Source of the DNA: Candidatus Heimdallarchaeum aukensis
GTDB lineage: Archaea; Asgardarchaeota; Heimdallarchaeia; Heimdallarchaeales; Heimdallarchaeaceae
Assembly (NCBI GenBank): GCA_021513695.1
Contig: CP084166.1
Coordinates: forward strand, 1,248,001-1,312,000
Length of the DNA: 64,000 nt
Direction of reading: 5' to 3'
Positions 1-64,000 of this stretch are shown piece after piece (within the stretch, counting starts at the first letter, position 1; each line of letters begins with the position of its first letter). The notes below the pieces were generated by a model. It saw only the letters and a list, made by a program, of their open reading frames with translations. It was not told the origin of the DNA and searched no databases. The position numbers and the translations under genes were made by a program.

Positions 1-1377
1 CTTCATAATTTGAATTACCTGGATTTCCAGTGTTATCATATACTATTACAGTCATTGAATAATTACCGTCTGCTAACTGATAAGTATTGAACTCTAATGT
101 CCATTTTTTAGTATCTGTGTTATATGTAGCGTCTATATCTCCATCTATTAGTTCAAATGAGAAAGTATGACCAGTTAGATTCATAAATACTAAGTCAAAG
201 TATTTCTCATTTATTCCTGATGGGTCTGAAGCATATACTTCAATTGTAATAGTTGCAGACAAATCCCAAGATTCATTTGCGGGAGTAATTATGGTGACTG
301 TTGGCCCATTATTATCTTCTAAATTAAATGATCTTCCAGCGATGTTTACATTACCTGCTTCATCCACAACACGTAAAGTGAAAGTATATTGATCTTCAGG
401 AAGAGTGGACGTTTCTGTTCCAGACATAATATACTCTCTTGTAGTTTTTGTTATTCCCTCAATTGTTGAACCTGCAGAAGGATAGATATCTCCTTCTATA
501 ATTAATTCTTGGAGATATAACCCTGCCCCATCGATGGTAAGAACCCAAGACACGTTTACTGCTTGACCTTGATTTACTGTTATAATACCTGATGTTGTAT
601 CATTTAGATATAAAGTTATTCCTATTGCATTGTTATCAATACCAAATAAATAGGTCTGCTCTATTGACTGATTTAGTGTATCATTTGTCTTAAATACTAA
701 TTTATAGTTATTGTCATCTGGATATAGACTAGTATTGATGTTTTGAGTTATATCTTGGTCTAGAGCAATTGCTGTATCATCAGGATAATAGAAATCATAA
801 GTTACTGCAGAAGCTTTAAATCCTCCTGTAGATACTGCTTGAGGATCAAGTATTCCACTTGTCCAACTATTATTTACTGGATTGATAACTGTTAAACTTA
901 ATGGCTCAATAGTATTAACATACTTTAAGTTATCTTCAGCAAGAACAAAAGAACCATCAATTAGTGTTACTCTTATACGGAAAGTATTATCTCCTAATCG
1001 TATTAGAGGAACAGGGTTGAACGATATTGCGATGTCAATACGCTCGGAGACATCTACTTCTAATGGATAAACAGCCCCGACCAGCGTTGAACTATTAACA
1101 TAAGCATTACTATATTCAACATTTTGTATTGTAATGTTTATCTTGGAAATAACCGCTTGAGCTGTTCCAGTATTTTGCAATGTTATATAAGTTATATCTA
1201 CTGCATCATCAGAATCAGTATCAAACCATTGAGCAGTAATGATAGAAATAGATGCGCTTCCTTGTATCATTGGAACTACTAAGAAATAAACTAGAGAACC
1301 AGATACAACTACCAAACTAATAAGTAAAATTGTTGCAATGACAGGGGAAACAGCTTTTCTTCTCTTTAATAATTTTA
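1..1377 (-). CDS. Large surface protein with archaeal class III (type IV pilin-like) signal peptide. Partial: the C-terminus lies beyond the window start.
   Basis: Minus-strand ORF open to position 1. N-terminus reads LKLIKLLKRRKAVSPVIATILLISLVVVSG, matching the K/R-A/G-x-S-P-V-I-A-T prepilin-peptidase (PibD/FlaK) motif. TTG start at 1377-1375, preceded by GGAGGT 7 nt upstream and an in-frame TAA two codons upstream. Downstream is Thr/Asn/Ser-rich with an Ig-like/adhesin flavour. Absent from the ORF track, presumably because of the TTG start and truncation. Confidence 0.6.
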
Positions 1378-1528
1378 TAAGCTTCAATTTTATTTACCTC
1401 TTTCTACACAATATTTTTCTCTACCTATATGATTTATTTTAATCTATATATATTTTAGCCTAATCTAGAAATACTAATAACTAGTTTATTATTAATCCTT
1501 ATAAGGAGTATTTTCGTGCTAGTACACA

Positions 1529-2293
1529 ATGAAAAATGAAAGCTTTTTTCCTACTATTCAATCAGCAATAGACTATGATAATTTTATCAATTGGGAAATT
1601 AGATTGAAAAGAGAAATTCCCTTTCTTTTGCAATATTTAAGAAAGAGAACTATACTAGATATCGCTTGTGGCTCTGGAAGACATGCTATTGCTCTTTCAG
1701 AGAAAGGATTTAGAGTAGTGGGAATAGATTATTCGACTAATATTATCAAAATTGCTAAAGAAATTTCAAGAAATGCAAATAATGTTGCGTTTTTTGTTAT
1801 AGATGCTACAAATCAAAAATTAAAAGAATTTTTTATAAGTAAAGAGTATAAAACCTTTGATAACGCAATAATTTTGGGAAACTCTATTGCGAATATGGGG
1901 AGTTTAGAAAAAGCAAAAAAGGTTATTGAGAATATACATAGTATTTTGGAAAACAAAGGTAGATTTATTGCGCAAACTATAAACAAACCTAAAAAGCCAT
2001 ATTTTTTACCTTTAAGGAAACTTGAAAGAGGTATAATGCAGAGAGTAATGTTTCCTGTTTCAAATAACCAAGATGAGCATAATATTGAGTTACACTTTAA
2101 ACTGATTGATACATCAAACCTTACTTATTTAGAAACAAAGATAGACAAACTGTACATGTTTTCTGCTAAAGAATTCGAAGACTTAGTAATTAAAATAGGG
2201 TTCAAACTTATCAAAAAATTTGGAGGTTTTAATTTCGAGCCTTTCTCTTCTGGTGAAACTAAAACTGTTGTTTGGGTCTTTGAAAAAATTTAG
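1529..2293 (+). CDS. Class I SAM-dependent methyltransferase
   Basis: Motif I ILDIACGSGRHAIALSEKGFRVVGIDYS (GxGxG plus acidic residue), 254 aa. Confidence 0.7.
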   Translation: MKNESFFPTIQSAIDYDNFINWEIRLKREIPFLLQYLRKRTILDIACGSGRHAIALSEKGFRVVGIDYSTNIIKIAKEISRNANNVAFFVIDATNQKLKEFFISKEYKTFDNAIILGNSIANMGSLEKAKKVIENIHSILENKGRFIAQTINKPKKPYFLPLRKLERGIMQRVMFPVSNNQDEHNIELHFKLIDTSNLTYLETKIDKLYMFSAKEFEDLVIKIGFKLIKKFGGFNFEPFSSGETKTVVWVFEKI

Positions 2294-2350
2294 TTAATAG
2301 TCGAATCAATTAACTTAAAAGACCATCTAAATTTATTCAATTGAAAAAAA

Positions 2351-3001
2351 ATGACTCAAGAAAAAAAAGTTTCTGTAAAGAAAAAAGCTTATGTTTTGAA
2401 CGATGAGCTTGCTGATAAAATTCGTCAAGAAATGAAAGCCAAAAATAAGCGATTTTTCAACATAATGGGTTCTATTGGAGCTGGAAAAACAGCTATTCTT
2501 GAACAATTAGCTGAAAAGTTATCTAAAAAATATAGAGTCTTTGTTATTAACGGAGATGTAGCAACCACAATTGATGCAGATAGAATTGCTGAACATGGAG
2601 CAAAAACTGTTCAAATTAACACTGGAGGAGGTTGTCATCTTAACGCTCAACTTATCCAAAATGAACTTTCTAAAATCAATATTGATGATTATGATATTTT
2701 CTTTGCTGAAAATGTGGGCAATCTAATTTGTCCTGCTAATTGGGATGTTGGCGCTGAACTAAATATAGTTGTAGTAAGCATTACAGAAGGACAATATGTT
2801 GTTAAAAAGCACCCTATCATGTTTAAAGGAGCTGATATTGCCCTAATTAACAAATGTGATCTCAACATTCCTGGATTCGATGCTGATGCTCTTGTAAAAG
2901 ACTGTTCAATGATTAAATCAGATATGAAGGTTCTCAAAACTAGCGCTGTGACAGGAGAAGGAATAGAAGAATTAATAGCCACTTTAGGTATAGAATTGTA
3001 A
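2351..3001 (+). CDS. hypB: Hydrogenase nickel-incorporation GTPase HypB
   Basis: GSIGAGKTAILE P-loop, TGGGCHLNA, ENVGNLICPA, INKCDL; full-length HypB architecture. Confidence 0.9.
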   Translation: MTQEKKVSVKKKAYVLNDELADKIRQEMKAKNKRFFNIMGSIGAGKTAILEQLAEKLSKKYRVFVINGDVATTIDADRIAEHGAKTVQINTGGGCHLNAQLIQNELSKINIDDYDIFFAENVGNLICPANWDVGAELNIVVVSITEGQYVVKKHPIMFKGADIALINKCDLNIPGFDADALVKDCSMIKSDMKVLKTSAVTGEGIEELIATLGIEL

Positions 3002-3014: not shown

Positions 3015-3431
3015 ATGCATGAATATAGTTTAGCTTCAGCAATTGTTGACCAAGTTGAGCAAATAGCTCTAGAACATAAAGCTGTAAGAGTAAAAAAAAT
3101 CATTGTTTCAGCTAGTCCTTACGAGCTTATTATTCCTGAACTTCTGTATGGAGCTTATGAAATCATTATTTCAGAACGTGATATGTTTAAAGGCTCTACT
3201 TTAGAGTACAAAGTACAAAAAGCTGAAATTACTTGTTTAGATTGTGGATACCAAGGAGAACCTGATGAAGAAGGAGACCCTGAATTCGCATATAATTTTA
3301 AATGTCCAAAATGTGGGGGAAGAGATACACACATTAATATGAAGAGTATGGTTATCGAATCCATTGATTTAGAAATTCCCTCTAAAAATGAAGAAGAGAA
3401 GAAGGAAGAAGTTACTAATTTAAATCAATAA
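3015..3431 (+). CDS. hypA: Hydrogenase maturation nickel metallochaperone HypA
   Basis: MHEYSLA N-terminus (His2 Ni site), CxxC...CxxC zinc motif (CLDCG ... CPKCGG); immediately downstream of hypB. Confidence 0.85.
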   Translation: MHEYSLASAIVDQVEQIALEHKAVRVKKIIVSASPYELIIPELLYGAYEIIISERDMFKGSTLEYKVQKAEITCLDCGYQGEPDEEGDPEFAYNFKCPKCGGRDTHINMKSMVIESIDLEIPSKNEEEKKEEVTNLNQ

Positions 3432-6222: not shown

Positions 6223-8523
6223 ATGTATCTATCATTTTTTTATTCGCAACAAAAAACTAGGCCTTTCACAAAGTTCGTAGAGATAGAACTTGAGAGAGAT
6301 GAGCTGTATAAAGCATTCACTGAACTGGATGAACCTGAAGAGATAAGTAAAAAGTGGATTGTTTTTGCTGAAGATTGTTCAAAACATTTGGCATCAATAA
6401 ACAGTTTAGCTTCCATGGCTTTTGAAAGATTATCAGAAGCTTATTCAGTTGATGAAGATGAAGACGAATCTGTTCTTCCTTTACATAGATTGCTTTATGG
6501 TTCAATTGCCAATCAAATGCTTTCTTTAACCCAATTTCAGCTAAAACTTGGAGTTCTTATATACATTTACTCTCAAGTAAGAAATCGTGGAGTTTTCTCA
6601 TATGCGCCTGAGGATTATCAATACTATTATTATATTCAAGCAAAGGAAACTTTGGACGATGTATTGTATAGAATTATGGAAAAGAAACTTCCTGAGCCCG
6701 CAGAAGAAGGATTTACCCCCACTCCTACAGTAAATGATATGATGAATATAATGTTTCCCTTACTAAAACTAGAGCAGAGAAAAAGGTTAATTCCAATTCT
6801 AAAACAAATCCCTGATCATGACAAAAATCCATTAATTATTAAAAAAATAGGTGACTATGACAGATTACAAGGTATAACTTTAATGTCAAACATTATAGAA
6901 ATTATGGAAAATTCTGCTGTTGATTTCTGGTGGAAAGACCCTATTTCCACCCTTTCAATATTAGATCATGCTTTAGAGCATTTTAATTTAGTAGTAGAGC
7001 TCTGGAAGGAACAACCAGGAGAACTCACTGCTCTAGCTTCAAGAATAGAACAGGATTATATCCCAATTGTTTACGGTTCTCGTTTTATTACACAATCACA
7101 GCATTTTGTTTCGTTAGCAGAAAGTGCGCTGGAGTCATTTGATATCGACTATGCATCCAAATATTATGACCAAGCAATGAAAAAACTTGAAGAAGCTAAA
7201 GAATATTTATTTAAATCTAATAACATTTTAGCAAACCAGCTTTATGAAACAATAAAAAATCAAGAACAAGAAGTTCAAATAATTAGTACGTTAACTAAAC
7301 TTTCTAATTTATTCTCTTTAATTATGAATGATTTAGTTATAGAAAACAAGGAAAAAGCAATTGAATTATGCGATAAAATTAACCAACTAATAAAACTACT
7401 AGAATCTTCTATTCCTATTCCTTATCTATATGGAATTTCAGTTAGTTATGCAGCAGCAGCTTCAGCACTAGTTAAAGTGGTTGAACAAGATGTTTCTTAC
7501 TTAAATATCATAGATCGTTTTATGAGTCAATTTTCTTTTCCTCTCAATTCAATGAAAGAAGCAATTGCAAATATTAACTTGAATTCAATTCGCATAAATG
7601 ACAACAATCCCAGATTAAGCTACTCCTTTCTTCGTGAAATCGAAGAAAATCTCAAATACCTGAAGAAAGCTGTAGAAATGCTTCCTAAATTTCTTAATGA
7701 AAAAGTACTTCAACAAAAGAAAATCAGTGCGATATTATATTATGTAAGATCATACATTGCAGAAAACAAGATTTACATTTATGCTGATAATAACATCGTA
7801 TTAGATTTAATTCTAAGAGCTAGAGCTCATTACTTTGCAAAGAAAGCAGAGCAGCAAATTGCAGATACTGATGAAAAAGAGCTTCTAAGTCTAATTAAAA
7901 ACAGAATCTTAGAAACAAAATCTTCTGGAATTGTTACTGAAACAAATCTTTTGTCTTTAGGATTACAAACAGCTTATAGTAAAACAGTTAGAGATGTTAT
8001 TGAACAAATTCTTTTGTTTTATGACCAAATTGAAAAGCCACCTGAATTCATCTTAGAATCCGTGAAAAACCAGTTTGAAAGTATGACAGAGTTTAAAGAG
8101 TTACTTAACTTAATGGAGCTTGACAACAAGGAACTACTTGCTTTACGTCAAGAAATCACCCTTAAAGGACACGAGATCAATTGGGTTTTTGTTGAGAGAA
8201 GAGAAAGTTTTATTCCAGCAACCAAAAAAATGTTTACAACCATAGAATCTGTGCTTTTAGGAGAACTAGCTGCAGATATGGGAAAGAGAGATGATGCAAT
8301 TAATTACTATACAAAAGCAAAAAAGAATCTATATGAGATAAGTGATATATTAAGCAAAGTAGCGAAATACATTGAAGATAACAAAGAATTACCTAGCTTG
8401 ATCTATACTTTAGCTTTATTCACCCAAGAGAATTTAAATGCTATAAGAGACAGAAGAAAGAGAAATGAAGTTCCTTACAAAGAAATTGTAGGAATACTAG
8501 ATTATCTAATCCTTAACCTCTAA
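6223..8523 (+). CDS. Large all-alpha hypothetical protein (766 aa), first gene of an operon with a GTPase-roadblock gene
   Basis: Long ORF with uniform coding composition and no recognisable catalytic motif; ends 21 nt before the 8545 GTPase gene on the same strand. Confidence 0.5.
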   Translation: MYLSFFYSQQKTRPFTKFVEIELERDELYKAFTELDEPEEISKKWIVFAEDCSKHLASINSLASMAFERLSEAYSVDEDEDESVLPLHRLLYGSIANQMLSLTQFQLKLGVLIYIYSQVRNRGVFSYAPEDYQYYYYIQAKETLDDVLYRIMEKKLPEPAEEGFTPTPTVNDMMNIMFPLLKLEQRKRLIPILKQIPDHDKNPLIIKKIGDYDRLQGITLMSNIIEIMENSAVDFWWKDPISTLSILDHALEHFNLVVELWKEQPGELTALASRIEQDYIPIVYGSRFITQSQHFVSLAESALESFDIDYASKYYDQAMKKLEEAKEYLFKSNNILANQLYETIKNQEQEVQIISTLTKLSNLFSLIMNDLVIENKEKAIELCDKINQLIKLLESSIPIPYLYGISVSYAAAASALVKVVEQDVSYLNIIDRFMSQFSFPLNSMKEAIANINLNSIRINDNNPRLSYSFLREIEENLKYLKKAVEMLPKFLNEKVLQQKKISAILYYVRSYIAENKIYIYADNNIVLDLILRARAHYFAKKAEQQIADTDEKELLSLIKNRILETKSSGIVTETNLLSLGLQTAYSKTVRDVIEQILLFYDQIEKPPEFILESVKNQFESMTEFKELLNLMELDNKELLALRQEITLKGHEINWVFVERRESFIPATKKMFTTIESVLLGELAADMGKRDDAINYYTKAKKNLYEISDILSKVAKYIEDNKELPSLIYTLALFTQENLNAIRDRRKRNEVPYKEIVGILDYLILNL

Positions 8524-8544
8524 AATTTCGATGAATGTGATACT

Positions 8545-9456
8545 ATGAACAAAGAGCTGATCGTCAAAAGAAAAAATGTTCCAGTAAGTATTATTGGCTT
8601 AGAATATTCTGGTAAAACGACATTCCTTAACTGGCTGATTAAACAGCGATTTACTAGACCTAAACCTACTGTAGGTTATAACTTTGAAGTTCTTGAAGTT
8701 GCCAACATGCACATTAACATTTTTGATCTTTCTGGTCATGAAAAGTTTAGAGAAAATATTTGGAAAAACTTTGTTCAATCAAGTGTGGGTATAATCTTTT
8801 TTGTTGATTCTTCTGATAAAAATAAGCTTAAAAAATCAGCAGAGTGGTTCTGGAAAGTTATTAATGAGTGGTTACAAGAGATATATTCTGAATATGCTGT
8901 CTTGTTCATAGCCAACAAAGCAGATCTAAAAAATTCTTTGGATTTGGAAACAATAATAAAAACTTTTGACTTGTATAAAATGTCAAAGTATTCTAATATT
9001 TCTTTTCAAGTTTTTAAGACTTCAATAAAAGAAGAACTTAATATACAGATAGCTTTTCAATGGTTGGTAAACAAACTAAATTCCATTACAAAAAACCAAC
9101 ATGTAGACATTCATGCCTTAATTATCTCTGATAAATTTGCAAACACTTTATACTCATATGATCCTCATAACATTTCCTCTGACCATGAGTTATTATCTGG
9201 CTTTGTCAATGCAATTAGTAGTTTTAGCAACGAATTATTGGGTTATGAAAATCTCAAACTAGTTAGAATTGGTAAATATTATGTCCTTATTTCTCAAGAA
9301 CCTGATTATTCAGTTGCTATTTTTTCACAAAGTGAATCAAATCTCCCTGAAGCAAGAAGAGTAATCTATAACATACACAGAAAAATAAAAGAGGTACAAA
9401 AGAAGATACTTACTACAAAAGATTATCAAGAGATTGTCGAACAATTTATTTCTTAA
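8545..9456 (+). CDS. Arf/Sar1-family small GTPase fused to a C-terminal roadblock/longin-like domain
   Basis: G1 GLEYSGKTT, switch I PTVGYNFE, G3 FDLSGHEKFR (His in place of the catalytic Gln, as in Sar1/SR-beta), G4 ANKADL. The C-terminal ~120 aa show an alternating hydrophobic alpha/beta pattern (HALIISDKFANTLYSY ... KLVRIGKYYVLISQEPDYSVAIF) typical of roadblock/LC7. Confidence 0.75.
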   Translation: MNKELIVKRKNVPVSIIGLEYSGKTTFLNWLIKQRFTRPKPTVGYNFEVLEVANMHINIFDLSGHEKFRENIWKNFVQSSVGIIFFVDSSDKNKLKKSAEWFWKVINEWLQEIYSEYAVLFIANKADLKNSLDLETIIKTFDLYKMSKYSNISFQVFKTSIKEELNIQIAFQWLVNKLNSITKNQHVDIHALIISDKFANTLYSYDPHNISSDHELLSGFVNAISSFSNELLGYENLKLVRIGKYYVLISQEPDYSVAIFSQSESNLPEARRVIYNIHRKIKEVQKKILTTKDYQEIVEQFIS

Positions 9457-9531: not shown

Positions 9532-10119
9532 GTGACGATTATGGAATGTAGATTTTGTAAACTACGAGATATAGAAAACGTTGAAAAAAATGTTTATCAC
9601 TGCAGTCATTGTGGTTACTCTTTTGAAGCGAGTAAGTGGGATATTTTCTACGATACACTTCTTCATATGCCTTTGTCTTCTTGGTTAGTTGCTAGTTTAC
9701 TCTGGGGAAGTGCAATGTTAACTGGAATTGTTTTTGGTGTTGGATTCAACAGTAAATCATTATCAATTACAACGTTGTTTTTGTATTTATATGGTATAAC
9801 AGCAGTTTTATATGGTGGGTCAAAGTCAGCTGACTATTTCCAAGCTTTATGGTTGTACTTCACTCAATGGATTAGAAGAAAAGATCCCCAATGGAATGAA
9901 ATCCTTGAAGAGATAAGAAAAAGAAGAAAAGAGAAGATGGCTAAAAAATCTACAGCATCAGTAGTAGCTACTTCTGGAACACACATAGAAACAGATATTA
10001 GGCCATCAGAGATGAGAATTCCTTACTTATCTGCTTCATTTAAAGCAGGACTTATCACTACGTTATTTGGTGTAATCTTTTCTATTGTTTACGGAGTCAT
10101 TTTTGCTTCTTCAATATAA
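9532..10119 (+). CDS. Membrane protein with N-terminal zinc ribbon
   Basis: CRFC ... CSHCGY zinc ribbon followed by about four predicted TM helices; 75 nt downstream of the GTPase gene. Confidence 0.45.
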   Translation: MTIMECRFCKLRDIENVEKNVYHCSHCGYSFEASKWDIFYDTLLHMPLSSWLVASLLWGSAMLTGIVFGVGFNSKSLSITTLFLYLYGITAVLYGGSKSADYFQALWLYFTQWIRRKDPQWNEILEEIRKRRKEKMAKKSTASVVATSGTHIETDIRPSEMRIPYLSASFKAGLITTLFGVIFSIVYGVIFASSI

Positions 10120-41334: not shown

Positions 41335-41378
41335 AAAAATCTAATAATGTTTAAATATATCGAAACCAATTTTTTATT

Positions 41379-50285: not shown

Positions 50286-50333
50286 ATTTCGTTTACTGCT
50301 ATTCCCTTACTGTTTAGATCTTCAATAAAGTAA
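49137..50333 (+). CDS. Thiolase (acetyl-CoA acetyltransferase), copy A, with a junction-derived C-terminal tail
   Basis: Identical to copy B for 382 aa, then reads SFTAIPLLFRSSIK across the duplication junction instead of LGRGDN. Confidence 0.7.
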   Translation: MSNEVYIIGTGQTKFGEFFNLNIGDLASEAVNKAIENAGIGKDEIRTLFIGSTVSNSLSQSSIGGICTRSCSLSSNAYRIESGNASGAAAFHHAFLSIKSGLYDVVAVLGIDKLSDYIQNGTIEKILASSIDYQWEYEMGATLTGLYSFLTQAHMEEYGTTLEQLAYIPTKNHQNGVLNPKAQYRYAIPLEKFLNAKRIADPIGRFDVATPCDGAAVVILASERYIENKKPHSYKVKILSSSAGSDTLALQHREKLTELKATRLAVNDAYNKAKISANDINVAEVHDSHPIGEILAIEDLGLVPKGEGGKATVEGLTALNGKITVNPSGGLKARGDPFGATGIAQLIEIVEQIRGNAGKRQVEDVKYGLTQNVMGTGVMSYVSISFTAIPLLFRSSIK

Positions 50334-52096: not shown

Positions 52097-54470
52097 AAAA
52101 GTGCTTTTAATTATCTAAATAAATTATTAAGTAAATTATTATGCAAAAAGTCGTACCAAAATTTTAAAAAATACCACTCAAACCTAAATATTAGCAGTTA
52201 GTAACTATTGTATCTATTATTTGAGAGATTCAACTATTAAATTAACAATAAGAATTCAACAGAAGTGGAAAAATGAGTGAAAAAGTAGGTATCATTGCAT
52301 ATGGAATATATATTCCGCGAAATAGAATTACTGTCGATGAGATCGCCAGTATATGGGGAGAAGATGCTAACGAAATAAAATCTCAACTGCAAATTTTTGA
52401 AAAATCTGTTCCTTTTCCAGATGAAGATGTAGCAACCATGGCTGTCGAAGCAGCGCGTAATGCAATGAAACAATGGGGAGGAGAAGCAGAAAAAATAGGT
52501 GCAATATATGTTGGAAGTGAATCTCATCCATACGCCGTTAAACCAACTGCAACGATTGTTGCAGCTGCAATAGGCGCAGAAGGAGAAACGACGGCAGCAG
52601 ATTTGGAATTTGCATGTAAAGCAGGAACTGCAGGCATGCAAATGTGTTTTGGATTAATTCAGTCAAACATGATCAAGGTTGGTCTAGCTATAGGTTCTGA
52701 TAGTAGTCAAGCTAAACCAAAAGACCCATTAGAGTACACTGCGGGTGCAGGAAGTGCCGCATTTTTAATTGGTAAGCAGGATATTATCGCAGAGCTTGAG
52801 GGTACATATTCTTACACTTCTGATACTCCAGATTTCTGGAGAAGAGAAGGAGCAACTTTTCCCTCTCATGGTCAAAGGTTTACTGGTATGCCTGCTTATT
52901 TTGATCATATTATAAAAGCAACAAAAGGATTATTAGAAAAAATCGATAGAAAGCCTGAAGACTATGATTACGTAACATTTCACCAACCTAACACAAAATT
53001 TCCTTTAAGAGTAGCTAAAATGTTAGGTTTTTCTAAAGAGCAAATCGAAAATAGTTTGGCGTGTAAGTACGTAGGAAACACATATTCTGCTTCATCTATG
53101 ATTGGATTTGCAAAAATTTTGGATGAAGCACAACCAGGCGATAAAGTTCTTGTAACTTCATATGGAAGTGGAGCAGGAAGTGATGCTTTTTCTTTTAAAA
53201 TTACAGAAAACATCGAAAAAATAAGGAGTAGATCTAAAACTGTTCAATATTATATTGAAAATAAAAGAAATATCAGCTATGGTCTCTATTCCCGCTATAA
53301 AGGAATTTTAAAGGTGTAAGTATGAGTAATGAAGTATATATAATTGGTACTGGACAAACAAAATTTGGTGAATTTTTTAATTTAAACATTGGTGATCTTG
53401 CTTCTGAAGCAGTTAACAAAGCTATTGAAAACGCGGGAATAGGAAAAGATGAGATAAGAACGCTATTTATTGGGTCAACAGTTTCTAACTCTCTTTCTCA
53501 ATCATCAATAGGCGGAATTTGTACTAGAAGTTGTAGTTTATCTTCTAACGCTTACAGGATTGAATCTGGAAATGCTAGTGGTGCAGCTGCATTCCACCAC
53601 GCTTTTTTAAGCATAAAAAGTGGGTTATATGACGTTGTTGCTGTATTAGGAATTGATAAATTATCAGATTATATCCAAAATGGAACAATTGAAAAAATTT
53701 TAGCTTCATCCATTGATTACCAATGGGAATACGAAATGGGAGCTACCCTCACAGGATTATACTCTTTTCTGACTCAAGCTCATATGGAAGAATATGGAAC
53801 AACATTAGAACAGCTAGCTTATATTCCAACGAAAAACCATCAAAATGGAGTTCTAAACCCAAAAGCTCAATATAGGTATGCTATCCCACTAGAAAAATTT
53901 CTTAATGCAAAAAGAATTGCTGACCCTATTGGAAGGTTTGATGTGGCTACACCTTGTGACGGTGCAGCAGTAGTAATATTAGCTTCTGAAAGATATATTG
54001 AAAATAAAAAACCACATTCTTACAAGGTAAAAATTCTCTCCTCATCAGCTGGTTCAGACACTTTAGCTTTGCAACACAGAGAAAAACTAACAGAGTTAAA
54101 AGCAACTAGACTGGCTGTTAACGATGCTTACAATAAAGCCAAAATTTCAGCAAATGATATTAATGTTGCAGAAGTACATGATTCACACCCAATTGGAGAG
54201 ATATTAGCAATAGAAGATCTTGGTTTGGTACCTAAAGGTGAAGGAGGAAAAGCAACTGTAGAAGGGTTGACTGCGCTAAACGGAAAGATAACTGTTAACC
54301 CAAGTGGAGGATTAAAAGCTAGGGGTGATCCTTTCGGAGCAACAGGAATTGCACAGTTAATAGAAATCGTTGAACAAATAAGAGGAAATGCTGGAAAAAG
54401 ACAAGTCGAGGATGTAAAATATGGGTTAACACAAAATGTCATGGGAACAGGGGTTATGTCCTATGTTTCT
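50286..54470. repeat. Unit B of the 4185-bp tandem direct duplication
   Basis: See unit A. Confidence 0.85.
52273..53319 (+). CDS. Archaeal hydroxymethylglutaryl-CoA synthase (copy B)
   Basis: Identical translation to copy A. Confidence 0.85.
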   Translation: MSEKVGIIAYGIYIPRNRITVDEIASIWGEDANEIKSQLQIFEKSVPFPDEDVATMAVEAARNAMKQWGGEAEKIGAIYVGSESHPYAVKPTATIVAAAIGAEGETTAADLEFACKAGTAGMQMCFGLIQSNMIKVGLAIGSDSSQAKPKDPLEYTAGAGSAAFLIGKQDIIAELEGTYSYTSDTPDFWRREGATFPSHGQRFTGMPAYFDHIIKATKGLLEKIDRKPEDYDYVTFHQPNTKFPLRVAKMLGFSKEQIENSLACKYVGNTYSASSMIGFAKILDEAQPGDKVLVTSYGSGAGSDAFSFKITENIEKIRSRSKTVQYYIENKRNISYGLYSRYKGILKV

Positions 54471-54494
54471 ATTCTAGGGAGAGGTGATAATTAA
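53322..54494 (+). CDS. Thiolase (acetyl-CoA acetyltransferase), intact copy B
   Basis: 390 aa, thiolase fold motifs (GSGAGS ... CDG), native C-terminus; stop overlaps the DUF35 start. Confidence 0.85.
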   Translation: MSNEVYIIGTGQTKFGEFFNLNIGDLASEAVNKAIENAGIGKDEIRTLFIGSTVSNSLSQSSIGGICTRSCSLSSNAYRIESGNASGAAAFHHAFLSIKSGLYDVVAVLGIDKLSDYIQNGTIEKILASSIDYQWEYEMGATLTGLYSFLTQAHMEEYGTTLEQLAYIPTKNHQNGVLNPKAQYRYAIPLEKFLNAKRIADPIGRFDVATPCDGAAVVILASERYIENKKPHSYKVKILSSSAGSDTLALQHREKLTELKATRLAVNDAYNKAKISANDINVAEVHDSHPIGEILAIEDLGLVPKGEGGKATVEGLTALNGKITVNPSGGLKARGDPFGATGIAQLIEIVEQIRGNAGKRQVEDVKYGLTQNVMGTGVMSYVSILGRGDN

Positions 54495-58544: not shown

Positions 58545-58940
58545 ATGCCCTATCAATGGTTAAAAAGAAGCCGCAGAAAATTGTCAGGTGGATTAATTAA
58601 GAAAGCAGCATCAAAGAAAAAGCGAGACATGGGTCGATATCCAGCTGAAACACAAATAGGTGAAAGAAAGCTCAAGATTATAAGGACAAGAGGAGGAAAC
58701 ATAAAACAACGCCTATTACGTGATAATTACGCAAATATTTTCGATCCAGAAGAAAAGATCTCAAGAAAAGTTAAGATTACCAACGTTTTAGAGAACAAAG
58801 CAAACAGAGAGTATGCAAGAAGAAGAATCATTACAAAAGGTTGTATCATTGAAACTGAAATAGGTAATGCTAGAGTAACAAGCAGACCTGGACAAGATGG
58901 ACAAATTAACGCTGTTTTGATTGAAAAGAAAACAGATTAG
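58545..58940 (+). CDS. rps8e: 30S ribosomal protein S8e
   Basis: Characteristic S8e sequence [16 protein letters not shown] ... and 131-aa length. Confidence 0.85.
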
Positions 58941-59005
58941 TTCTCAACCATTTTTAATTTATTTTTCTAAAAGCATTAATATTATTTCTATTATTAATTT
59001 GGATA

Positions 59006-59290
59006 TTATTTGAATCTCTTTTTCTTTTGCTTTCTTTTTTTCTTAGGCTGAAGAGAATATAATATTGTTTCAGGAGATAGATACTCTTGAGCTCCTTCTT
59101 TTAATTTTACGCTTACGTAAGGAGCTTTTACAGGACCAAAAATATCATTTACAACCCCTATATGGACCATTTTCTCTGTTACTACTGCGCTACCTATTTT
59201 AGGAAGTTTATCTGGAGATTTAATAATCAAATTTCCAAGATCACTAATGTGAAGGAATCTTCCTAATTTTTTGATTGGAGGGGCACTCAT
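59006..59290 (-). CDS. gar1: H/ACA ribonucleoprotein complex subunit Gar1
   Basis: KLGRFLHIS ... IGSAVVTEKMVHIGVVNDIFGPVKAPYVSVK matches the Gar1 core. Confidence 0.75.
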   Translation of the reverse strand: MSAPPIKKLGRFLHISDLGNLIIKSPDKLPKIGSAVVTEKMVHIGVVNDIFGPVKAPYVSVKLKEGAQEYLSPETILYSLQPKKKRKQKKKRFK

Positions 59291-59296
59291 CTGTAA

Positions 59297-59623
59297 TCAC
59301 TTTTTCTTTTTTGGTTTTCCAGTTTGTTGTTTTTTCTTTAGTTTTCTTGCTATACTTGCAACATTATTAATTAATTCAGATTTATTTTTTACAGATTCTG
59401 GGTTTATTAGTATTCTTCCTTCACTATTCCACCAATTCTTAGAATATTTTTTTTCTTTTTCAACTATATGATCATAATTAAGATGTTTACATGCGAAAGC
59501 TATTTTTGCTAGAGAACAATCATCTACTGCCTTGTTTTTTGGTACTTTTCTTCCTTGATTTCGCGTAAGTTTCTTGTCAAAATATTCAGGATATAGGACG
59601 AAATACCTCTTTCTACGAAGCAT
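59297..59623 (-). CDS. srp19: Signal recognition particle protein SRP19
   Basis: YFVLYPEYFDKKLTRNQGRKVPK matches the SRP19 (Sec65) signature. Confidence 0.8.
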   Translation of the reverse strand: MLRRKRYFVLYPEYFDKKLTRNQGRKVPKNKAVDDCSLAKIAFACKHLNYDHIVEKEKKYSKNWWNSEGRILINPESVKNKSELINNVASIARKLKKKQQTGKPKKKK

Positions 59624-59743
59624 GATAAAAGTTTTGAAACTTTGCTAATAATCTTTTGGGTACTGAACCTAACCTTATTCACTAACAAAAAATCACAAAA
59701 AAGTTAATTCAATTAAAAAAGAAGAGAATAACATAGTTGGTAA

Positions 59744-60211
59744 TCATTTGATAAATTGTATTTCTTCTTCGATATAGTCAAATTCCTCAAATTTGAACTT
59801 CATTTTTTCTTGTTCTTCATGATTTATATCTTCAGAATAGATTAGCCATTCATTAAAAGCTTTGCATAATATTGGGTTGACGGGATTATTAATGCTGCAT
59901 TCGTGAATACGCTCACAAGTAAAGCATCTACAAACCATTGTGTCCCATCCTGTTTCTTCTTTACGAGGAATTGTGAGTAAATAATCTTTAACATTACCAA
60001 TTTCAACTGGGATTTTTAGGATTTTATTGTTATAAAGGAGTTCATCAATTTTCAATTTAATTGTTGAATGATCACCCAGTAAATCAAGTACTTCACTATG
60101 GAGCAATTTTTTCTCTTTTGTTAATTCGATTAGCTCAATAATTTCTTCTCCCAAAGCATTACTATAGCTTTGTTCTACCTTAATTCTTTGTTTAGGAATC
60201 ATAATTCTCAC
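59744..60211 (-). CDS. Hypothetical winged-helix protein with Cys cluster (CRCFTCERIHEC)
   Basis: 155 aa; wH-like N-terminus and a C-terminal Cys cluster (cluster/metal-binding). Lies among translation/transcription genes and could be TFE-beta-like, but this is unsupported. Confidence 0.35.
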   Translation of the reverse strand: MRIMIPKQRIKVEQSYSNALGEEIIELIELTKEKKLLHSEVLDLLGDHSTIKLKIDELLYNNKILKIPVEIGNVKDYLLTIPRKEETGWDTMVCRCFTCERIHECSINNPVNPILCKAFNEWLIYSEDINHEEQEKMKFKFEEFDYIEEEIQFIK

Positions 60212-60395
60212 TCACAATGTTTTTAGATCACATTCTATGGACTATACTGTCACATAACTACGTTATCTCTTCAAAAGTTACTATGTAATTTACTATATTT
60301 AAATCTTCATACAGATTCAAAAAACGTATGTGTGTTTTATATGCACAGTATTTTGAAACTGCTCAAAAAATATATTTAAAATATTTAGAATAGAA

Positions 60396-61061
60396 ATGAA
60401 CCCTATTTCAATTTATCATTTTAAGCAAAATTTATCATTTAATAATTTAACAACAACAAAAGGGAAAGTGACCAAAGTGCCACATGATGCAGATTACTTC
60501 TATGATAAAGCAAAAAAACAAGGTTATCGTTCAAGAGCTTCTTATAAACTCTTGCAAATACATGAGAAATTTCATATTTTCAAAAAAAATCAGATAGTTG
60601 TCGATCTTGGCGCATCTCCAGGAGGATGGACTCAAGTTGCATCAGAAAAAGTAGGCAATAATGGTTTAGTTATTGCAATAGATAAAGCCTATATTCCTCC
60701 TTTAAATCTAAAAAACGTGGAAATTTTACAGATGGATATAATGAATGAAATAATAAGTGAATACTTGAAAGACAGATATGGGTTGGTAGATGTTTTATTA
60801 AGTGATTGTGCGCCTAATGTAAGCGGAAAATGGTCTCTTGACCATTCAATTCAAATTATGCTCGCAGAAAGAGCACTAAGAATAGCTGAAGATATCCTGA
60901 AAGACGAAGGTTGGATAGTTGTCAAAGTTTTTCAAGGAGATCAATTTGCTAATTTTATCTCTTATGCAAAAAAAGTCTTCACTACAGTAAAATTATTCAA
61001 ACCACAAGCTTCAAGAAAGAAAAGCGCAGAAATTTATCTGGTTGCAAATACTAAAAGCTAA
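60396..61061 (+). CDS. rlmE: Ribosomal RNA large subunit methyltransferase E (FtsJ/RlmE)
   Basis: GYRSRASYKL, VVDLGASPGGWTQVA, LSDCAPNVSG. Confidence 0.85.
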   Translation: MNPISIYHFKQNLSFNNLTTTKGKVTKVPHDADYFYDKAKKQGYRSRASYKLLQIHEKFHIFKKNQIVVDLGASPGGWTQVASEKVGNNGLVIAIDKAYIPPLNLKNVEILQMDIMNEIISEYLKDRYGLVDVLLSDCAPNVSGKWSLDHSIQIMLAERALRIAEDILKDEGWIVVKVFQGDQFANFISYAKKVFTTVKLFKPQASRKKSAEIYLVANTKS

Positions 61062-61081
61062 AGACAAAGAGAGATATAAAT

Positions 61082-62263
61082 ATGAATAAGGAATTATGGG
61101 TTGAAATTAAAGAGGGAAAAACATCTTTCTTTCTAAAGAAAGATTCTGAAACTATCTATGATGCTTCTGTTTTTTACAACCCTAAAATGTCTATAAATAG
61201 AGATTTAGCTCTTTTGCATCTTTATACGATTGGAAATATAACAAAAAAAGGATTAATCATTATTGACCCTTTTGCAGGCTCAGGAATTAGAAGCTTTAGG
61301 ATAATTAATGAGCTTCCTAAAGAATATGTTAAGAAAATAATAATTTCAGATATAAGCGACAGAGCAATTAAGAATGTGAAATTAAATATTGAAAAGTTAT
61401 TCAATGACAAAAGAATTGTTGTTCATCGTGAAGATGCATTTAACATTATAGCTAAACAAATTTTAGATAAAGAAAATATTGATGTTATTGATCTTGACCC
61501 ATTTGGGACACCTATTTCATTTATTGATATAGCTGTTAGAGCTTTGGTAAAAAAAAGCGGATATTTGTTTTTAACTGCAACAGATCATCAAGTTTTGTGC
61601 GGTAAAGAGAAATCTACTTGTTTAAGAGAATATAACAGCAATTCAACAAATAATTATCTGTGTCATGAAATAGCTTTAAGGATTCTAATTTACAATATTT
61701 TGACAAGTTCTGGACGAATTGGTGCGTATGCTGAACCTATACTAGCTCTGCAATTTGAACATTTTTTCAGAATTCACGTAAGAATTGAAAAAGGAAAAAA
61801 AAGAGCAAATGAACAACATAAGGAGATAGGTTTTGTTTATGTTTGTGCTTATTGTAGTTTTTTTGAAACAGAGAGATTAAAAGAAAAAAAGAATTTACAA
61901 AAATGTCCAACATGTAACAAAGAGCTAGAAAAAGTAGGGCCTTTATGGCTAGGGCCTTTAGGAAATAAGAAAAAGGTAGGGGATCTTCTCAACTTTTTAG
62001 ATGAAATTGAATTTGAGCATAATAACAAGAAAAAAATTAATTTAATGTTATCAACATTCAAAGAAGAGATTGAACTCCCTCCAATGTTCTACAACTTACC
62101 TTTTTTATACAAAAAATATAAGAAAAATGGTGTTTCTCCTAATGAAATGATAAACAGATTAGAAAAAAGAGGATATAAGACCACAAGAACAATCTTCGAT
62201 TTTCAATCAATAAGAACAGAGGCACCATATTACGTTGTACATAATGAAATAAAGAAATTATAA
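61082..62263 (+). CDS. trm1: tRNA (guanine26-N2)-dimethyltransferase Trm1
   Basis: FYNPKMSINRDLALL, IIDPFAGSGIRSFR, C-terminal CAYC ... CPTC zinc finger. Confidence 0.85.
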   Translation: MNKELWVEIKEGKTSFFLKKDSETIYDASVFYNPKMSINRDLALLHLYTIGNITKKGLIIIDPFAGSGIRSFRIINELPKEYVKKIIISDISDRAIKNVKLNIEKLFNDKRIVVHREDAFNIIAKQILDKENIDVIDLDPFGTPISFIDIAVRALVKKSGYLFLTATDHQVLCGKEKSTCLREYNSNSTNNYLCHEIALRILIYNILTSSGRIGAYAEPILALQFEHFFRIHVRIEKGKKRANEQHKEIGFVYVCAYCSFFETERLKEKKNLQKCPTCNKELEKVGPLWLGPLGNKKKVGDLLNFLDEIEFEHNNKKKINLMLSTFKEEIELPPMFYNLPFLYKKYKKNGVSPNEMINRLEKRGYKTTRTIFDFQSIRTEAPYYVVHNEIKKL

Positions 62264-62265
62264 GG

Positions 62266-62943: not shown

Positions 62944-62954
62944 AGATGTGATTA

Positions 62955-63590
62955 ATGGACGAAAAAAATTTAGAAGAATCCTCTATTGAAGATTTTTGGA
63001 AGAAAAGTTCTCCGACCAGAGATTTAATAATTGTTTTCACTGTTATTTACCTGATTCTTACAATATTATCACTAACTTTTTTTGTAGACACAGGATATAC
63101 TGGCATTGTCAAAGTAATTTCAATTAGTCGAATCGTCTTAGAATGGACAGGACAGTATAATTTGTTAGTATTTAAAGGGTACATTTACGAGCTATTTAGC
63201 GCAATTTTTGTTCATGCGAATTTATTACATTTATTATCTAATCTCTTATTCTTCCTAATTTATGGATTAAGAGCAGATGAGAGACTATATACAAAACATT
63301 TTTACATCATATTTATTTTCTCTGCATTATTAGGAAATCTATTTACTCTAGTAGTTTATCCAGTAAATACTGTTTCTTGTGGAGCTTCAGGAGGTGTTTT
63401 TGGGTTACTTGGAGCTGACTTGATTCTGGCTTATGAAGAGGATGAAAACAGATCAATTTGGACTTATCTGGCTTCAGGTGCTATATTTTTATTTATATCT
63501 GCAGGAGTAAATGTGAATAGTTTAGCGCACGGTATTGGACTAGTTTCTGGAATAATATTAACCCTTTTTATTATTAAAAAGAGAAAGTGA
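62955..63590 (+). CDS. Rhomboid family intramembrane serine protease
   Basis: GASGGVFGLLGA (GxSG in TM4) and AHGIGLVSG (His in TM6); six TM helices. Confidence 0.75.
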   Translation: MDEKNLEESSIEDFWKKSSPTRDLIIVFTVIYLILTILSLTFFVDTGYTGIVKVISISRIVLEWTGQYNLLVFKGYIYELFSAIFVHANLLHLLSNLLFFLIYGLRADERLYTKHFYIIFIFSALLGNLFTLVVYPVNTVSCGASGGVFGLLGADLILAYEEDENRSIWTYLASGAIFLFISAGVNVNSLAHGIGLVSGIILTLFIIKKRK

Positions 63591-63695
63591 AAGAAAGCAG
63601 TTTAATTTTAAATAAACAAGCCAAAGTAGATTTAAATAGCCTAGTACAAACAGAAGATTTATTTGTTTAAATTGGATTAGAAACTAAGATTCAAG

Positions 63696-64000
63696 ATGAT
63701 TCCGTACCATGTACAAGTTTTGTTAACTAATGTACCAAACATCGAAGAAGTGTCAATCAAAGAACTTATCGAATTAGATGTGAAAAAAATTAAAGGTATT
63801 GGTGACAAATATGCAAAGGTCTTGTACAGAAAAGGAATCAAGAAAGTAAAAGATTTAGCAAAGTTAGATTCTCAAGAAATAGATTTACCCGAAAAAATAG
63901 TTACTAAATGGATAGTTGCTGCAAGAATTATCGTTAATTCACAAAAAGTTCGCAGAACTGGAAAAATTATTTTCTCAGGTCTATCTCAAGCTGGAAAAAC
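63696..64000 (+). CDS. HhH domain fused to an Arf-like small GTPase. Partial: the 3' end lies beyond the window.
   Basis: IKGIGDKYAKVLYRKGIKKVKDLAKLD HhH, then GKIIFSGLSQAGK (start of an Arf-like G1) at the window edge. Confidence 0.5.
   Translation, partial: MIPYHVQVLLTNVPNIEEVSIKELIELDVKKIKGIGDKYAKVLYRKGIKKVKDLAKLDSQEIDLPEKIVTKWIVAARIIVNSQKVRRTGKIIFSGLSQAGK

Follow-up and report, generated by a model that had tools for sequence, protein, structure and literature searches.

Five small GTPase genes on a Heimdallarchaeum chromosome and a conserved triad with a predicted longin-type regulator

A sequence-only reading of the 64,000-nucleotide stretch of DNA analysed here (the window) had described it as a concentrated sample of eukaryotic-signature proteins, with six small GTPase genes. 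This raises the questions of which GTPases the window encodes, what is fused to them, and whether genes lying so close together form a functional island.

Origin of the window and its GTPase genes

The window consists of ordinary chromosomal DNA of a Ca. Heimdallarchaeum species (Asgard, Heimdallarchaeia). Thirteen consecutive genes, covering 20 kb at about 86% DNA identity, are colinear with CP084167.1, the chromosome of Ca. Heimdallarchaeum endolithica PR6; protein identity ranges over 78–99%, and the GTPases reach 97–99% (ArfL2 98%, MglA1 99%), with ArfL1 at 93%. With a single exception, a Saccharibacteria match at 24% identity, the other related loci carry the labels Heimdallarchaeota, Asgard (one Thorarchaeota, one Promethearchaeati) or uncultured archaeon. 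Colinearity, protein identities and labels together bear out the Asgard origin proposed earlier. The archaeal markers named for this purpose were found by Pfam, namely S8e (58545–58940, + strand), SRP19 (59297–59623, − strand) and Trm1 (61082–62263, + strand), and the same region (58545–62263) also holds Gar1 (59006–59290, − strand) and FtsJ (60396–61061, + strand).

A scan for P-loop and NKxD motifs, combined with Pfam, gave five Ras-superfamily GTPase genes in the 64-kb window, three Arf/Sar-like (ArfL1, ArfL2, ArfL3) and two MglA-like (MglA1, MglA2), in four separate gene contexts. The only other protein in the window with both motifs is a HypB/CobW-family GTPase (2351–3001, + strand; Pfam cobW 2.3e-20), followed by HypA (3015–3431); such proteins are classed as SIMIBI GTPases and fall outside the Ras superfamily. 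The HypB/HypA pair also lies upstream of ArfL1 in two related loci, L034 and L035. No G domain was found by Pfam in the remaining ORFs of at least 100 aa, and stand-alone Ras/Rab-like forms are absent from the window, as had been stated. Five of the six proposed GTPases thus stand, while the sixth, a supposed HhH-Arf-like gene, is refuted, since both HhH proteins of the window lack a P-loop and a G domain. The most likely source of that call is the protein at 14822–15547 (− strand), in which an HhH domain (Pfam HHH_5 6e-16 over aa 5–58) is followed by a Lys/Pro/Ala-rich linker and a C-terminus with weak resemblance to L35Ae (E 0.005); in the second protein (18404–19900, − strand), the HhH is C-terminal.

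Arf-like G domains and their C-terminal extensions

ArfL1 (303 aa, 8545–9456, + strand; Pfam Arf 111.7 bits against a cut-off of 22.3) has an Arf/Sar-like G domain at aa 3–177, with G1 GLEYSGKT, G3 DLSGH and G4 NKAD, and a C-terminal longin/roadblock-fold domain at aa ~185–303 (window 9097–9453). Upstream by 22 nt on the same strand lies orf766 (6223–8523, +), which matched no Pfam family, and just downstream lies orf195 (9532–10119, +), whose two CxxC pairs, hydrophobic stretches and weak Pfam Zn_ribbon matches read by eye as a putative zinc ribbon with membrane segments. In both L034 and L035, whose ArfL1 proteins are only 40–43% identical to that of the window, counterparts of orf766 (764–765 aa) and orf195 (195–202 aa) occupy the same positions. 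The ArfL1 cluster is conserved and distinct from the ArfL2 operon, but ArfL1 has the same G-plus-longin architecture.

ArfL2 (339 aa, 27621–28640, + strand; Pfam Arf 125.4 bits, cut-off 22.3) starts with a conserved helix-like segment, MSFYEFRRRILEE, and a variable charged linker, continues with canonical Arf/Sar-like motifs (GLERAGKT, PTYGVN, DLGGH..R..W, NKSD, SAK), His occupying the catalytic position as it does in Sar1, and ends in a longin/roadblock-like domain at aa ~208–339. Its best PDB matches are Arf1 (5e-29) and 8ouk–8oun (about 1e-26), chains that we take to be Asgard ArfR structures. ArfL3 (333 aa, 28644–29645, + strand; Pfam Arf 66.3 bits, cut-off 22.3), whose translation probably begins at the Met at 28653, keeps G1 (GLDKSGKS), G4 (NKMD) and G5 (SAK), lacks DxxG, and also has a longin/roadblock-like C-terminus. 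Its non-canonical switch II, LEADEETARESPYFQDI, is kept across the alignment of 28 orthologues, and in the PDB it comes closest to Arl1, Arl3 and Arl8 (E 5e-14 and weaker). The N-terminal helices of ArfL2 and ArfL3 are moderately amphipathic, with hydrophobic moments of 0.57 and 0.50 compared with 0.70 for Arf1 and 0.64 for Sar1, and may confer nucleotide-dependent membrane binding. Pfam Gtr1_RagA scores of 19.7 and 15.8 bits lie under the cut-off of 22, ArfL1 has no such match, and Rag/Gtr chains do not figure in the 60 PDB matches listed with either ArfL2 or ArfL3; by sequence, the ArfL G domains are Arf-like rather than Rag-like.

The three C-terminal extensions, each of about 120–140 aa, give only a sub-threshold longin match in Pfam. 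Profile comparison indicates that they are mutually homologous: the ArfL3 and ArfL1 C-termini align with an hhalign probability of 84% (E 7e-6), and the ArfL2 family aligns with the joint ArfL1/ArfL3 profile at 93% (E 2.9e-7, 116 columns). The model of the ArfL1 domain (pLDDT 90.4) follows the strand order of longins, beta-beta-alpha-beta-beta-beta-alpha-alpha. That all three Arf-like genes encode fusions is thus correct, while the term "roadblock" applied to them was too specific. The complete earlier picture, of six small GTPases with an HhH-Arf fusion and three roadblock fusions, could draw on the HhH domains in the window and on roadblock proteins among the top fold matches of the modelled C-terminal domain; it is nevertheless very improbable, given HhH proteins devoid of a G domain, the modelled longin order, and Robl_LC7 matched by no ORF in Pfam, the three extensions included.

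Among known Asgard proteins, ArfR/AArf (Vargova et al., bioRxiv 10.1101/2024.02.28.582541; Zhu et al. 2025, PMC11914678) share the Arf-family motifs; the ArfR clade is distinct from a separate "ArfL" clade. ArfL2 matches the presumed ArfR chains and eukaryotic Arf1 about equally well, which is a PDB match and not a clade placement. Characterised ArfRs are single-domain proteins of 160–220 aa, whereas ArfL1–3 are fusions, with N-terminal helices in ArfL2 and ArfL3; extra domains have been reported on some ArfR/AArf members (bioRxiv 10.1101/2024.02.28.582541; PMC11914678).

The ArfL2-ArfL3-orf255 triad

ArfL2, ArfL3 and orf255 (255 aa, 29658–30425, + strand) are tightly packed on one strand in an operon-like manner. 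Each of the 25 related Heimdallarchaeota loci with sequence downstream of ArfL3 carries the triad, as does a more divergent MAG, at 38% identity for ArfL2, 30% for ArfL3 and 39% for orf255; in most related loci, the ArfL2 match extends 1–6 nt beyond the start of the ArfL3 match. No description of this triad was found in the literature searched. The nearest published case is that of Tran et al. 2024 (PMC10933270), in which "Rag-like" GTPases of Prometheoarchaeum MK-D1, annotated as Arf, carry fused longin or roadblock domains, and heterodimerisation in Gtr1/Gtr2 fashion is predicted for one pair encoded in an operon. Such fusions are abundant in Asgard genomes (PMC10933270; Liu et al. 2020/2021, bioRxiv 10.1101/2020.10.19.343400); the proteins of the window resemble them in joining an Arf-annotated G domain to a longin/roadblock-fold domain, and ArfL2/ArfL3 resemble the published operon pair, for which dimerisation through the longin/roadblock domains is predicted. 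The published examples come from MK-D1 and asCOG surveys, whereas the present case comes from the family Heimdallarchaeaceae and combines one subunit whose switch II is degenerate with a conserved third gene.

The RagA/B-RagC/D (Gtr1-Gtr2) system likewise has two paralogous GTPases, each with a roadblock-type C-terminal domain, but the ArfL G domains score as Arf and not as Gtr1_RagA, and no Ragulator-like roadblock genes lie near the triad. Adjacency, paralogy and analogy suggest that ArfL2 and ArfL3 may pair via their C-terminal domains, like RagA/RagC and Gtr1/Gtr2. Alternatively, each may act singly or as a homodimer, the C-terminal domain being an in-cis platform or regulator and the adjacency nothing more than an old tandem duplication; the binding of SR-beta to the SRX longin domain of SR-alpha is a model for such an arrangement. 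We consider this rather unlikely, since the two genes are still adjacent at 30–38% identity, the start of ArfL3 often overlaps the end of ArfL2, and the canonical and non-canonical subunits are each conserved as such; together, these features would be expected of an obligate pair.

The models of orf255 place a longin domain at aa 11–158 and a gelsolin-like domain at aa 163–247, the pLDDT of the five AlphaFold2 models ranging from 83.5 down to 41.3. At the sequence level, no match was found to any Pfam family or to NPRL2 residues 1–120; the top structural matches include Lst4, FLCN, FNIP2, NPRL2 and NPRL3. G21-P22 is invariant and is located in the model at the start of strand 2, and R94, R101 and R115 are all invariant, with no arginine finger pinpointed among them. 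On the modelled structure, orf255 is predicted to be an NPRL2/FLCN/Lst4-like GP-motif longin with a gelsolin-like domain, which may dock onto the ArfL2-ArfL3 pair as a regulator, probably as GAP for the canonical subunit. Longin domains are commoner in GEFs than in GAPs, and with Mon1-Ccz1, TRAPP and DENN as models of longin-based GEFs, orf255 in a real triad could instead be a nucleotide-exchange factor, a scaffold or an effector, or its gelsolin-like domain could tie the GTPases to actin. Such a role is judged unlikely, because the top structural matches Lst4, FLCN, FNIP2 and NPRL2 are GAP-type longins, and because the GP motif at the start of strand 2, reported to be specific to GAP longins and absent from non-GAP longins (PMC12290439), is invariant here. 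The modelled GP-motif longin domain is the likeness of the predicted GAP orf255 to GATOR1 (NPRL2-NPRL3) and FLCN-FNIP (Lst7-Lst4); it differs from them as a single 255-aa protein whose second domain is gelsolin-like, not DENN or the NPRL2 C-terminal domain. Matches to Sec23, the Sar1 GAP, are weak, with E about 5e-3 and a low TM-score, and offer an analogy only, as does haloarchaeal ArvA-ArvB-ArvC, whose DUF2072/DUF2073 partner is absent from the window.

MglA-like genes and the question of an island

The claim of two MglA-like GTPases is confirmed, MglA being the best solved relative of both. MglA1 (255 aa, 26379–27146, − strand), divergently transcribed from ArfL2, has a P-loop GPSLAGKT, switch I GRTIFYD, G3 TVAGQ and G4 NKID, and matches Myxococcus xanthus and Thermus thermophilus MglA at E 4e-15 versus 1e-6 for Rab11. 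Its paralogue MglA2 (E 1e-64 between the two; 252 aa, 41379–42137, + strand) has GPTLAGKT, GRTVFFD, TVPGE and NKSD and matches MglA at E 1.4e-14. In alignment with M. xanthus MglA, GRTIFYD and GRTVFFD pair with DRTLFFD, and TVAGQ and TVPGE with TVPGQ; the P-loop matches that of MglA, the switch I Arg lines up with the MglA one, and G3 has Thr for Asp (Thr-x-x-Gly for Asp-x-x-Gly). Both are MglA-type switches. Unlike the bacterial proteins, they are about 55 aa longer than the solved chains (in MglA1 the extra residues are C-terminal to the aligned region), have no MglB roadblock gene nearby, and in MglA2 carry Glu for the Gln of TVPGQ. NERD235 (25654–26361, − strand; weak Pfam matches to NERD, 1.6e-4, and Mrr_cat, 1.4e-3) follows MglA1 on the same strand at a distance of 17 nt, an arrangement repeated in PR6, where NERD235 is 78% identical. 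One neighbour of MglA2, 117 nt downstream on the same strand, encodes a ParM/Alp/MreB-like actin-like protein (42255–43301, + strand; Pfam ALP_N 2.6e-18, MreB-like_C 1.7e-15), and this arrangement recurs in metagenome contig L033 at about 87% DNA identity. Interplay of MglA with MreB is known in Myxococcus.

Across 62 Asgard assemblies, Vargova et al. (bioRxiv 10.1101/2024.02.28.582541) counted 2922 proteins of the Ras superfamily. This amounts to about 47 per genome, which for a 3.3-Mb genome gives a rough baseline of about 0.9 genes per 64 kb, an average from which the host's own count may differ. Against this baseline, the Poisson probability of at least five genes is about 0.002, and that of at least four loci, with the ArfL2/ArfL3 tandem pair taken as one, about 0.013. 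The density is thus somewhat above the rough baseline. The set itself is ordinary for the group, because Asgard archaea are already known to have GTPase-longin/roadblock fusions, MglA-like GTPases and NPRL2/FLCN-like longins.

That the five genes form no functional island, their co-occurrence reflecting the large number of Asgard GTPases plus one tandem pair, has a slightly better than even chance of being right. They lie in four unrelated contexts with housekeeping genes between them, MglA1 adjoins ArfL2 in the genus Heimdallarchaeum only, GNAT and ThiI genes come after the triad in other genera, and the enrichment counted by loci is modest. Five genes where about 0.9 are expected is still unusual, though, and a 365-kb contig of another MAG likewise carries both ArfL1 and the triad (L003, L034).

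The best explanation, which we hold with moderate confidence, is a Heimdallarchaeum chromosome with five GTPases in four contexts, among them a Rag-like ArfL2/ArfL3 pair that would be served by the longin-type regulator orf255. The useful new point is the conserved triad itself, in which a canonical Arf/Sar-like GTPase is joined by a paralogue with an odd switch II and by orf255.

Small GTPase genes and chromosomal origin

Five Ras-superfamily genes were found in the window by a motif scan combined with Pfam and phmmer searches: three Arf/Sar-like genes with C-terminal extensions, ArfL1 (8545–9456, +), ArfL2 (27621–28640, +) and ArfL3 (28644–29645, +), and two MglA-like genes, MglA1 (26379–27146, −) and MglA2 (41379–42137, +). 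Pfam was run on every ORF of at least 100 aa, and the five G domains were searched by phmmer against ORFs of at least 60 aa; no further G domain was found in either set. Arf (PF00025) was the top Pfam family for all three Arf-like proteins (ArfL1 111.7, ArfL2 125.4 and ArfL3 66.3 bits; cut-off 22.3), while MglA1 and MglA2 gave weaker Roc, Ras and Arf matches and are paralogous to each other (phmmer, E 1e-64). The sequence-only reading had counted six small GTPase genes; five are real, and the sixth is absent from the motif scan, Pfam and phmmer results alike. The co-occurrence of a P-loop and NKxD across all window ORFs did give six candidates, the sixth being a CobW/HypB-family GTPase (2351–3001) that adjoins HypA, and the CobW/HypB family lies outside the Ras superfamily by established classification. 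HypB, MobB and both HhH proteins were rejected as members of the superfamily because the Pfam and phmmer scans of the ORFs yielded no extra GTPase. An HhH-Arf-like gene, also proposed from the sequence, does not exist here: neither HhH protein has a P-loop or a G domain, and no window ORF combines an HhH motif with a G domain. One of them (14822–15547, −), an unusual protein of 241 aa, carries two N-terminal HhH motifs and a Lys/Pro/Ala-rich linker of the KPKA/KAEP type (~100 aa), and its C-terminus matches ribosomal L35Ae weakly (Pfam, E 0.005); the other (18404–19900, −) has a C-terminal HhH. The window has a G+C content of ~30%, and no tRNA gene and no match to an Rfam family was found in it; positions 1–1528 hold no listed ORF of at least 100 aa, and plus-strand frame 1 is stop-rich there.

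It has been reported by Vargova et al. that 62 Asgard assemblies contain 2922 curated Ras-superfamily proteins, ~47 per genome (bioRxiv 10.1101/2024.02.28.582541). With this average and a 3.3-Mb genome, ~0.9 such genes are expected per 64 kb, and the Poisson probability is ~0.002 for five genes and ~0.013 for four independent loci, the baseline being the all-Asgard average and not the source genome; this suggests mild enrichment only. Many small GTPases together with longin/roadblock fusions are textbook Asgard biology and already known.

The Asgard origin assumed from the sequence is borne out by homologue labels and by colinearity with PR6, the chromosome of Ca. Heimdallarchaeum endolithica (CP084167.1), which place the window inside the Asgard archaea. 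The source-named closest homologues of ArfL2, ArfL1 and orf255 (a 255-aa protein encoded at 29658–30425, +) bear the labels Heimdallarchaeaceae, Heimdallarchaeota, Heimdallarchaeum or Asgard group. No recorded sequence is identical to the window ArfL2; when one genome per species was scanned, it matched a protein on the complete PR6 chromosome at 98% identity. Thirteen consecutive genes are colinear with PR6 at 78–99% protein identity, and the DNA is ~86% identical over 20 kb, which points to another species of the same genus; an ANI of 88% between PR6 and Ca. H. aukensis has been reported (PMC8813620), and the window would fit the latter species. These taxonomic statements and the gene identities are near certain. 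Across window positions 17510–37835 the DNA is ~86% identical to the PR6 locus throughout, and the GTPase genes are far better conserved than their neighbours, with protein identities of 99% for MglA1, 98% for ArfL2, 97% for ArfL3 and 96% for orf255, against 78% for a NERD-like gene and 89% for orf420.

MglA-like genes, the ArfL1 locus and repeats

MglA is the best solved relative of both MglA1 (E 4e-15) and MglA2 (E 1.4e-14), with Rab11 next for MglA1 at 1e-6, in agreement with the two MglA-like genes that had been proposed. Their P-loops match that of M. xanthus MglA; the switch I arginine is shared (GRTIFYD in MglA1 and GRTVFFD in MglA2, compared with DRTLFFD), as is Thr for Asp in G3 (TVAGQ in MglA1 and TVPGE in MglA2, compared with TVPGQ), but the Gln of TVPGQ is replaced by Glu in MglA2. 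In MglA the arginine at this place is R53, the catalytic residue (PMC10933270). No MglB-like roadblock gene was found in the window, where no ORF of at least 100 aa matches Robl_LC7. The gene after MglA1 is the weakly NERD-like one (25654–26361, −), and a ParM/MreB-type actin-like gene comes after MglA2; both arrangements were confirmed within the genus only, and when metagenomes were scanned with MglA2, one contig, nearly identical, was recovered. Further downstream of MglA1, past the NERD-like gene and on its strand, lies a gene for a 590-aa protein (23725–25497, −) that is mostly coiled coil by eye and matches the Pfam crescentin rod domain far under the cut-off (5e-7); this order is kept in PR6. 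Upstream of MglA2, a 744-aa protein (38964–41198, +) has weak Pfam peptidase matches only; by eye, its sequence suggests a signal-like segment at the N-terminus, a metalloprotease motif (HEFQH) and a membrane anchor at the C-terminal end.

ArfL1 is flanked by orf766 (6223–8523, +; 766 aa, with no Pfam family match) and orf195 (9532–10119, +; 195 aa, which reads as a zinc ribbon with membrane segments). The order orf766–ArfL1–orf195, together with upstream HypB–HypA, recurs in two other genomes, where ArfL1 is 40–43% identical.

Two repeats were also observed. A 118-nt repeat occurs at 25561–25678, between the NERD-like and coiled-coil genes downstream of MglA1, and at 41220–41337, just upstream of MglA2; the copies are 97% identical and have terminal inverted repeats of 11–12 bp (TAGTACTTCCG...CGGAAGTACTA), and the NERD-like/coiled-coil site is occupied in PR6 too (95%; 8024–8141 of that locus). 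Transcripts of either strand would fold strongly (z −4.8 and −5.4), no Rfam family matches the repeat, and its appearance is that of a MITE or a small structured RNA. The other repeat, a perfect 4189-bp tandem duplication (46100–50288 and 50285–54473; 100% identical, gapless, period 4185), covers the 5′ 1.8 kb of a subtilase gene, which is its N-terminal coding part, as well as HMG-CoA synthase and thiolase; the C-terminus of thiolase is altered in the first copy (398 vs. 390 aa). The duplication either arose very recently or is an artefact of assembly; a related metagenome contig stops at window position 48020.

G domains and C-terminal extensions of the Arf-like proteins

The canonical motifs of ArfL2 are complete, with GLERAGKT, PTYGVN, DLGGH followed by R..W, NKSD and SAK; as in Sar1, DLGG is followed by His. 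Against the Arf switch II consensus DxGG(Q/H)xxxRxxW, ArfL2 (DLGGHAPFRLSLW) fits, ArfL1 (DLSGHEKFRENIW) is near and ArfL3 (LEADEETARESPYF) departs. The G3 of ArfL1 is DLSGH, and H or Q stands at that position in its orthologues. ArfL3 retains G1 (GLDKSGKS), G4 (NKMD) and G5 (SAK) and lacks DxxG; its switch II, LEADEETARESPYFQDI, is almost invariant across 28 orthologues, which indicates a conserved non-canonical state and not decay. The best solved relatives are Arf1 proteins for ArfL2 (E 5e-29) and Arl1, Arl3 and Arl8 for ArfL3; ArfL2 also matches the four PDB chains 8ouk–8oun (~1e-26, much as it matches Arf1), which we take to be solved Asgard ArfR structures. Pfam Gtr1_RagA (PF04670) scores below its cut-off of 22 bits with ArfL2 (19.7) and ArfL3 (15.8) and does not match ArfL1, and the 60 PDB matches listed for ArfL2 or ArfL3 include neither a Rag nor a Gtr chain. 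By sequence, ArfL1, ArfL2 and ArfL3 are Arf-like and not Rag proteins.

Conserved N-terminal segments occur in ArfL2 (MSFYEFRKRILEEK) and ArfL3 (SYLSFLRDKV), with helical hydrophobic moments of 0.57 and 0.50 (moderate), compared with 0.33 for ArfL1 and with 0.70 and 0.64 for reference N-termini of Arf1 and Sar1. ArfL3 and L. major Arl1 can be aligned at their N-termini from residue 7, and in ArfL2 a variable linker of ~25 aa separates the putative N-terminal helix from the G domain. A membrane-binding N-terminal helix is possible in both ArfL2 and ArfL3.

The three fusions that had been read as Arf/Sar1–roadblock proteins do exist, but "roadblock" is too specific a name for the extensions. Robl_LC7 (PF03259) is absent from the Pfam results for all three, and the extension that was modelled, that of ArfL1, departs from the alpha-beta-beta-alpha-beta-beta-beta order of Roadblock/LC7 domains. 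ArfL1 residues 185–303 were modelled from an alignment of 16 orthologues (mean pLDDT 90.4), and the predicted order of elements is beta-beta-alpha-beta-beta-beta-alpha-alpha, as in longins. Longins are among the structural matches of this model; below the top ones these include MP1/p14, delta- and zeta-COP, sigma- and mu-adaptins, VAMP7, MglB, LAMTOR proteins and the SRX domain. Longins account for the longer alignments. Because of the strand order, the lack of Robl_LC7 and the longin alignments, "longin/roadblock-superfold fusion, with longin topology" replaces "roadblock fusion". In predicted domain order the fusions match Rag/Gtr GTPases, whose G domain precedes a C-terminal dimerization domain of the roadblock type. 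The families of the ArfL1 and ArfL3 extensions align with an hhalign probability of 84% (E 7e-6), and a joint ArfL1/ArfL3 profile aligns end to end with the ArfL2 family (93%, E 2.9e-7, 116 columns); judged from these profile alignments, the three extensions are homologous. Searched exhaustively with HMMER, 1.84 billion proteins yielded just 5 matches to the ArfL1 C-terminal domain, too small a set to be informative; a profile of this domain found nothing relevant among PDB sequences, and Pfam at E up to 10 returned for the three C-terminal domains and orf255 only Intu_longin_1, sub-threshold at E 0.007.

The ArfL2–ArfL3–orf255 triad and its possible mechanism

ArfL2, ArfL3 and orf255 are separated by gaps of 3 nt and 12 nt. 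An orf255 orthologue follows ArfL3 in all 25 related Heimdallarchaeota loci with sequence downstream of ArfL3, and in most related loci the ArfL2 match extends 1–6 nt beyond the start of the ArfL3 match. The triad is kept in the more divergent MAG GCA_018238155.1 (ArfL2 38%, ArfL3 30% and orf255 39% identical), where the G3 of the ArfL3 orthologue is likewise non-canonical. In that MAG a stand-alone 173-aa Arf-like GTPase gene (8138–8659 of its locus) comes directly after the triad; neither the window nor the Heimdallarchaeaceae loci have this gene there. The five GTPase genes, which fall into four independent loci, may be functionally unconnected, and the ArfL fusions may each act alone, with the C-terminal domain working in cis like SRX on SR-beta. 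The support for a putative obligate heterodimer of the paralogues ArfL2 and ArfL3 is their conserved adjacency. The closest precedent is found in Prometheoarchaeum MK-D1, in which Arf-annotated, structurally "Rag-like" GTPases carry fused longin or roadblock domains; for one pair of these, encoded in an operon, dimerization like that of Gtr1/Gtr2 is predicted (PMC10933270). Liu et al. also reported that Asgard genomes encode Rag-family GTPase–longin fusions and proteins like FLCN and NPRL2 (bioRxiv 10.1101/2020.10.19.343400).

No Pfam match was found for orf255, and its homologues are all annotated "hypothetical". In the best AlphaFold2 model (pLDDT 83.5; the other four lower, minimum 41.3), a longin domain is predicted at residues 11–158, followed at 163–247 by a small sheet-plus-helix domain with a predicted gelsolin fold. 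Structural matches are a Lokiarchaeota longin (11.3), folliculin (11.0), FNIP2 (9.5), NPRL2 (8.8), NPRL3 (8.4) and C9orf72 (8.1); in an independent Foldseek comparison the top hits are chains from two GATOR1 complexes (E 1.1e-4 and 7.5e-4) together with the Lokiarchaeota longin (E 1.6e-4), and the modelled longin fold appears closest to the FLCN, Lst4 or NPRL2 type. A GP motif directly ahead of strand 2 in the longin domain has been reported to be specific to the GAP-type longins FLCN, NPRL2, SMCR8 and C9orf72, and to occur in Heimdallarchaeial longins, whose GTPase partners were posed as a question in 2025 (PMC12290439). In orf255, G21-P22 is invariant in 23 of 23 sequences, is kept in the 39%-identical orthologue and opens the predicted strand 2 (residues 21–27), as expected of a GP motif. 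R94, R101 and R115, all invariant, are candidates for the catalytic arginine finger, and "GYR101DCVVFF" resembles "YSR78NALLF" of NPRL2 by eye only; the NPRL2 sequence was verified against 6ces_N, and hhalign gave no significant alignment of the orf255 family with NPRL2 residues 1–120 and found nothing between orf255 and the three ArfL C-terminal domains. The GP motif would point to a GAP; in rival readings orf255 would instead serve as a GEF, as a scaffold or, through its gelsolin-like domain, as a link to actin.

In the proposed mechanism, ArfL2 and ArfL3 would pair via their C-terminal domains in the fashion of the Rag/Gtr heterodimer, and orf255 would be their regulator, most likely a GAP for the canonical subunit. 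This heterodimer-plus-GAP mechanism is put forward tentatively, as possible but rather doubtful. A fuller reading is about as doubtful: the Heimdallarchaeaceae triad might be a compact archaeal counterpart of the Rag heterodimer with a longin GAP of the GATOR1 or FLCN type, in which a canonical and a non-canonical Arf-like GTPase would be paired via C-terminal longin/roadblock domains and turned off by a GP-motif longin protein, its gelsolin-like domain possibly coupling to actin or being Sec23-like.

The window adds further members of known GTPase kinds and one conserved operon. Longin proteins resembling the GATOR1, folliculin and C9orf72–SMCR8 catalytic subunits had already been noted in Heimdallarchaeia, and the value here lies in gene linkage: the triad operon names candidate GTPase partners for Asgard GP-motif longins, which makes the proposal testable, and it encodes three small soluble proteins that could be produced and assayed together. 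If the proposal is true, the triad would answer the partner-GTPase question (PMC12290439), and the Rag-plus-longin-GAP module would predate eukaryotes and would have arisen on an Arf-like G domain.
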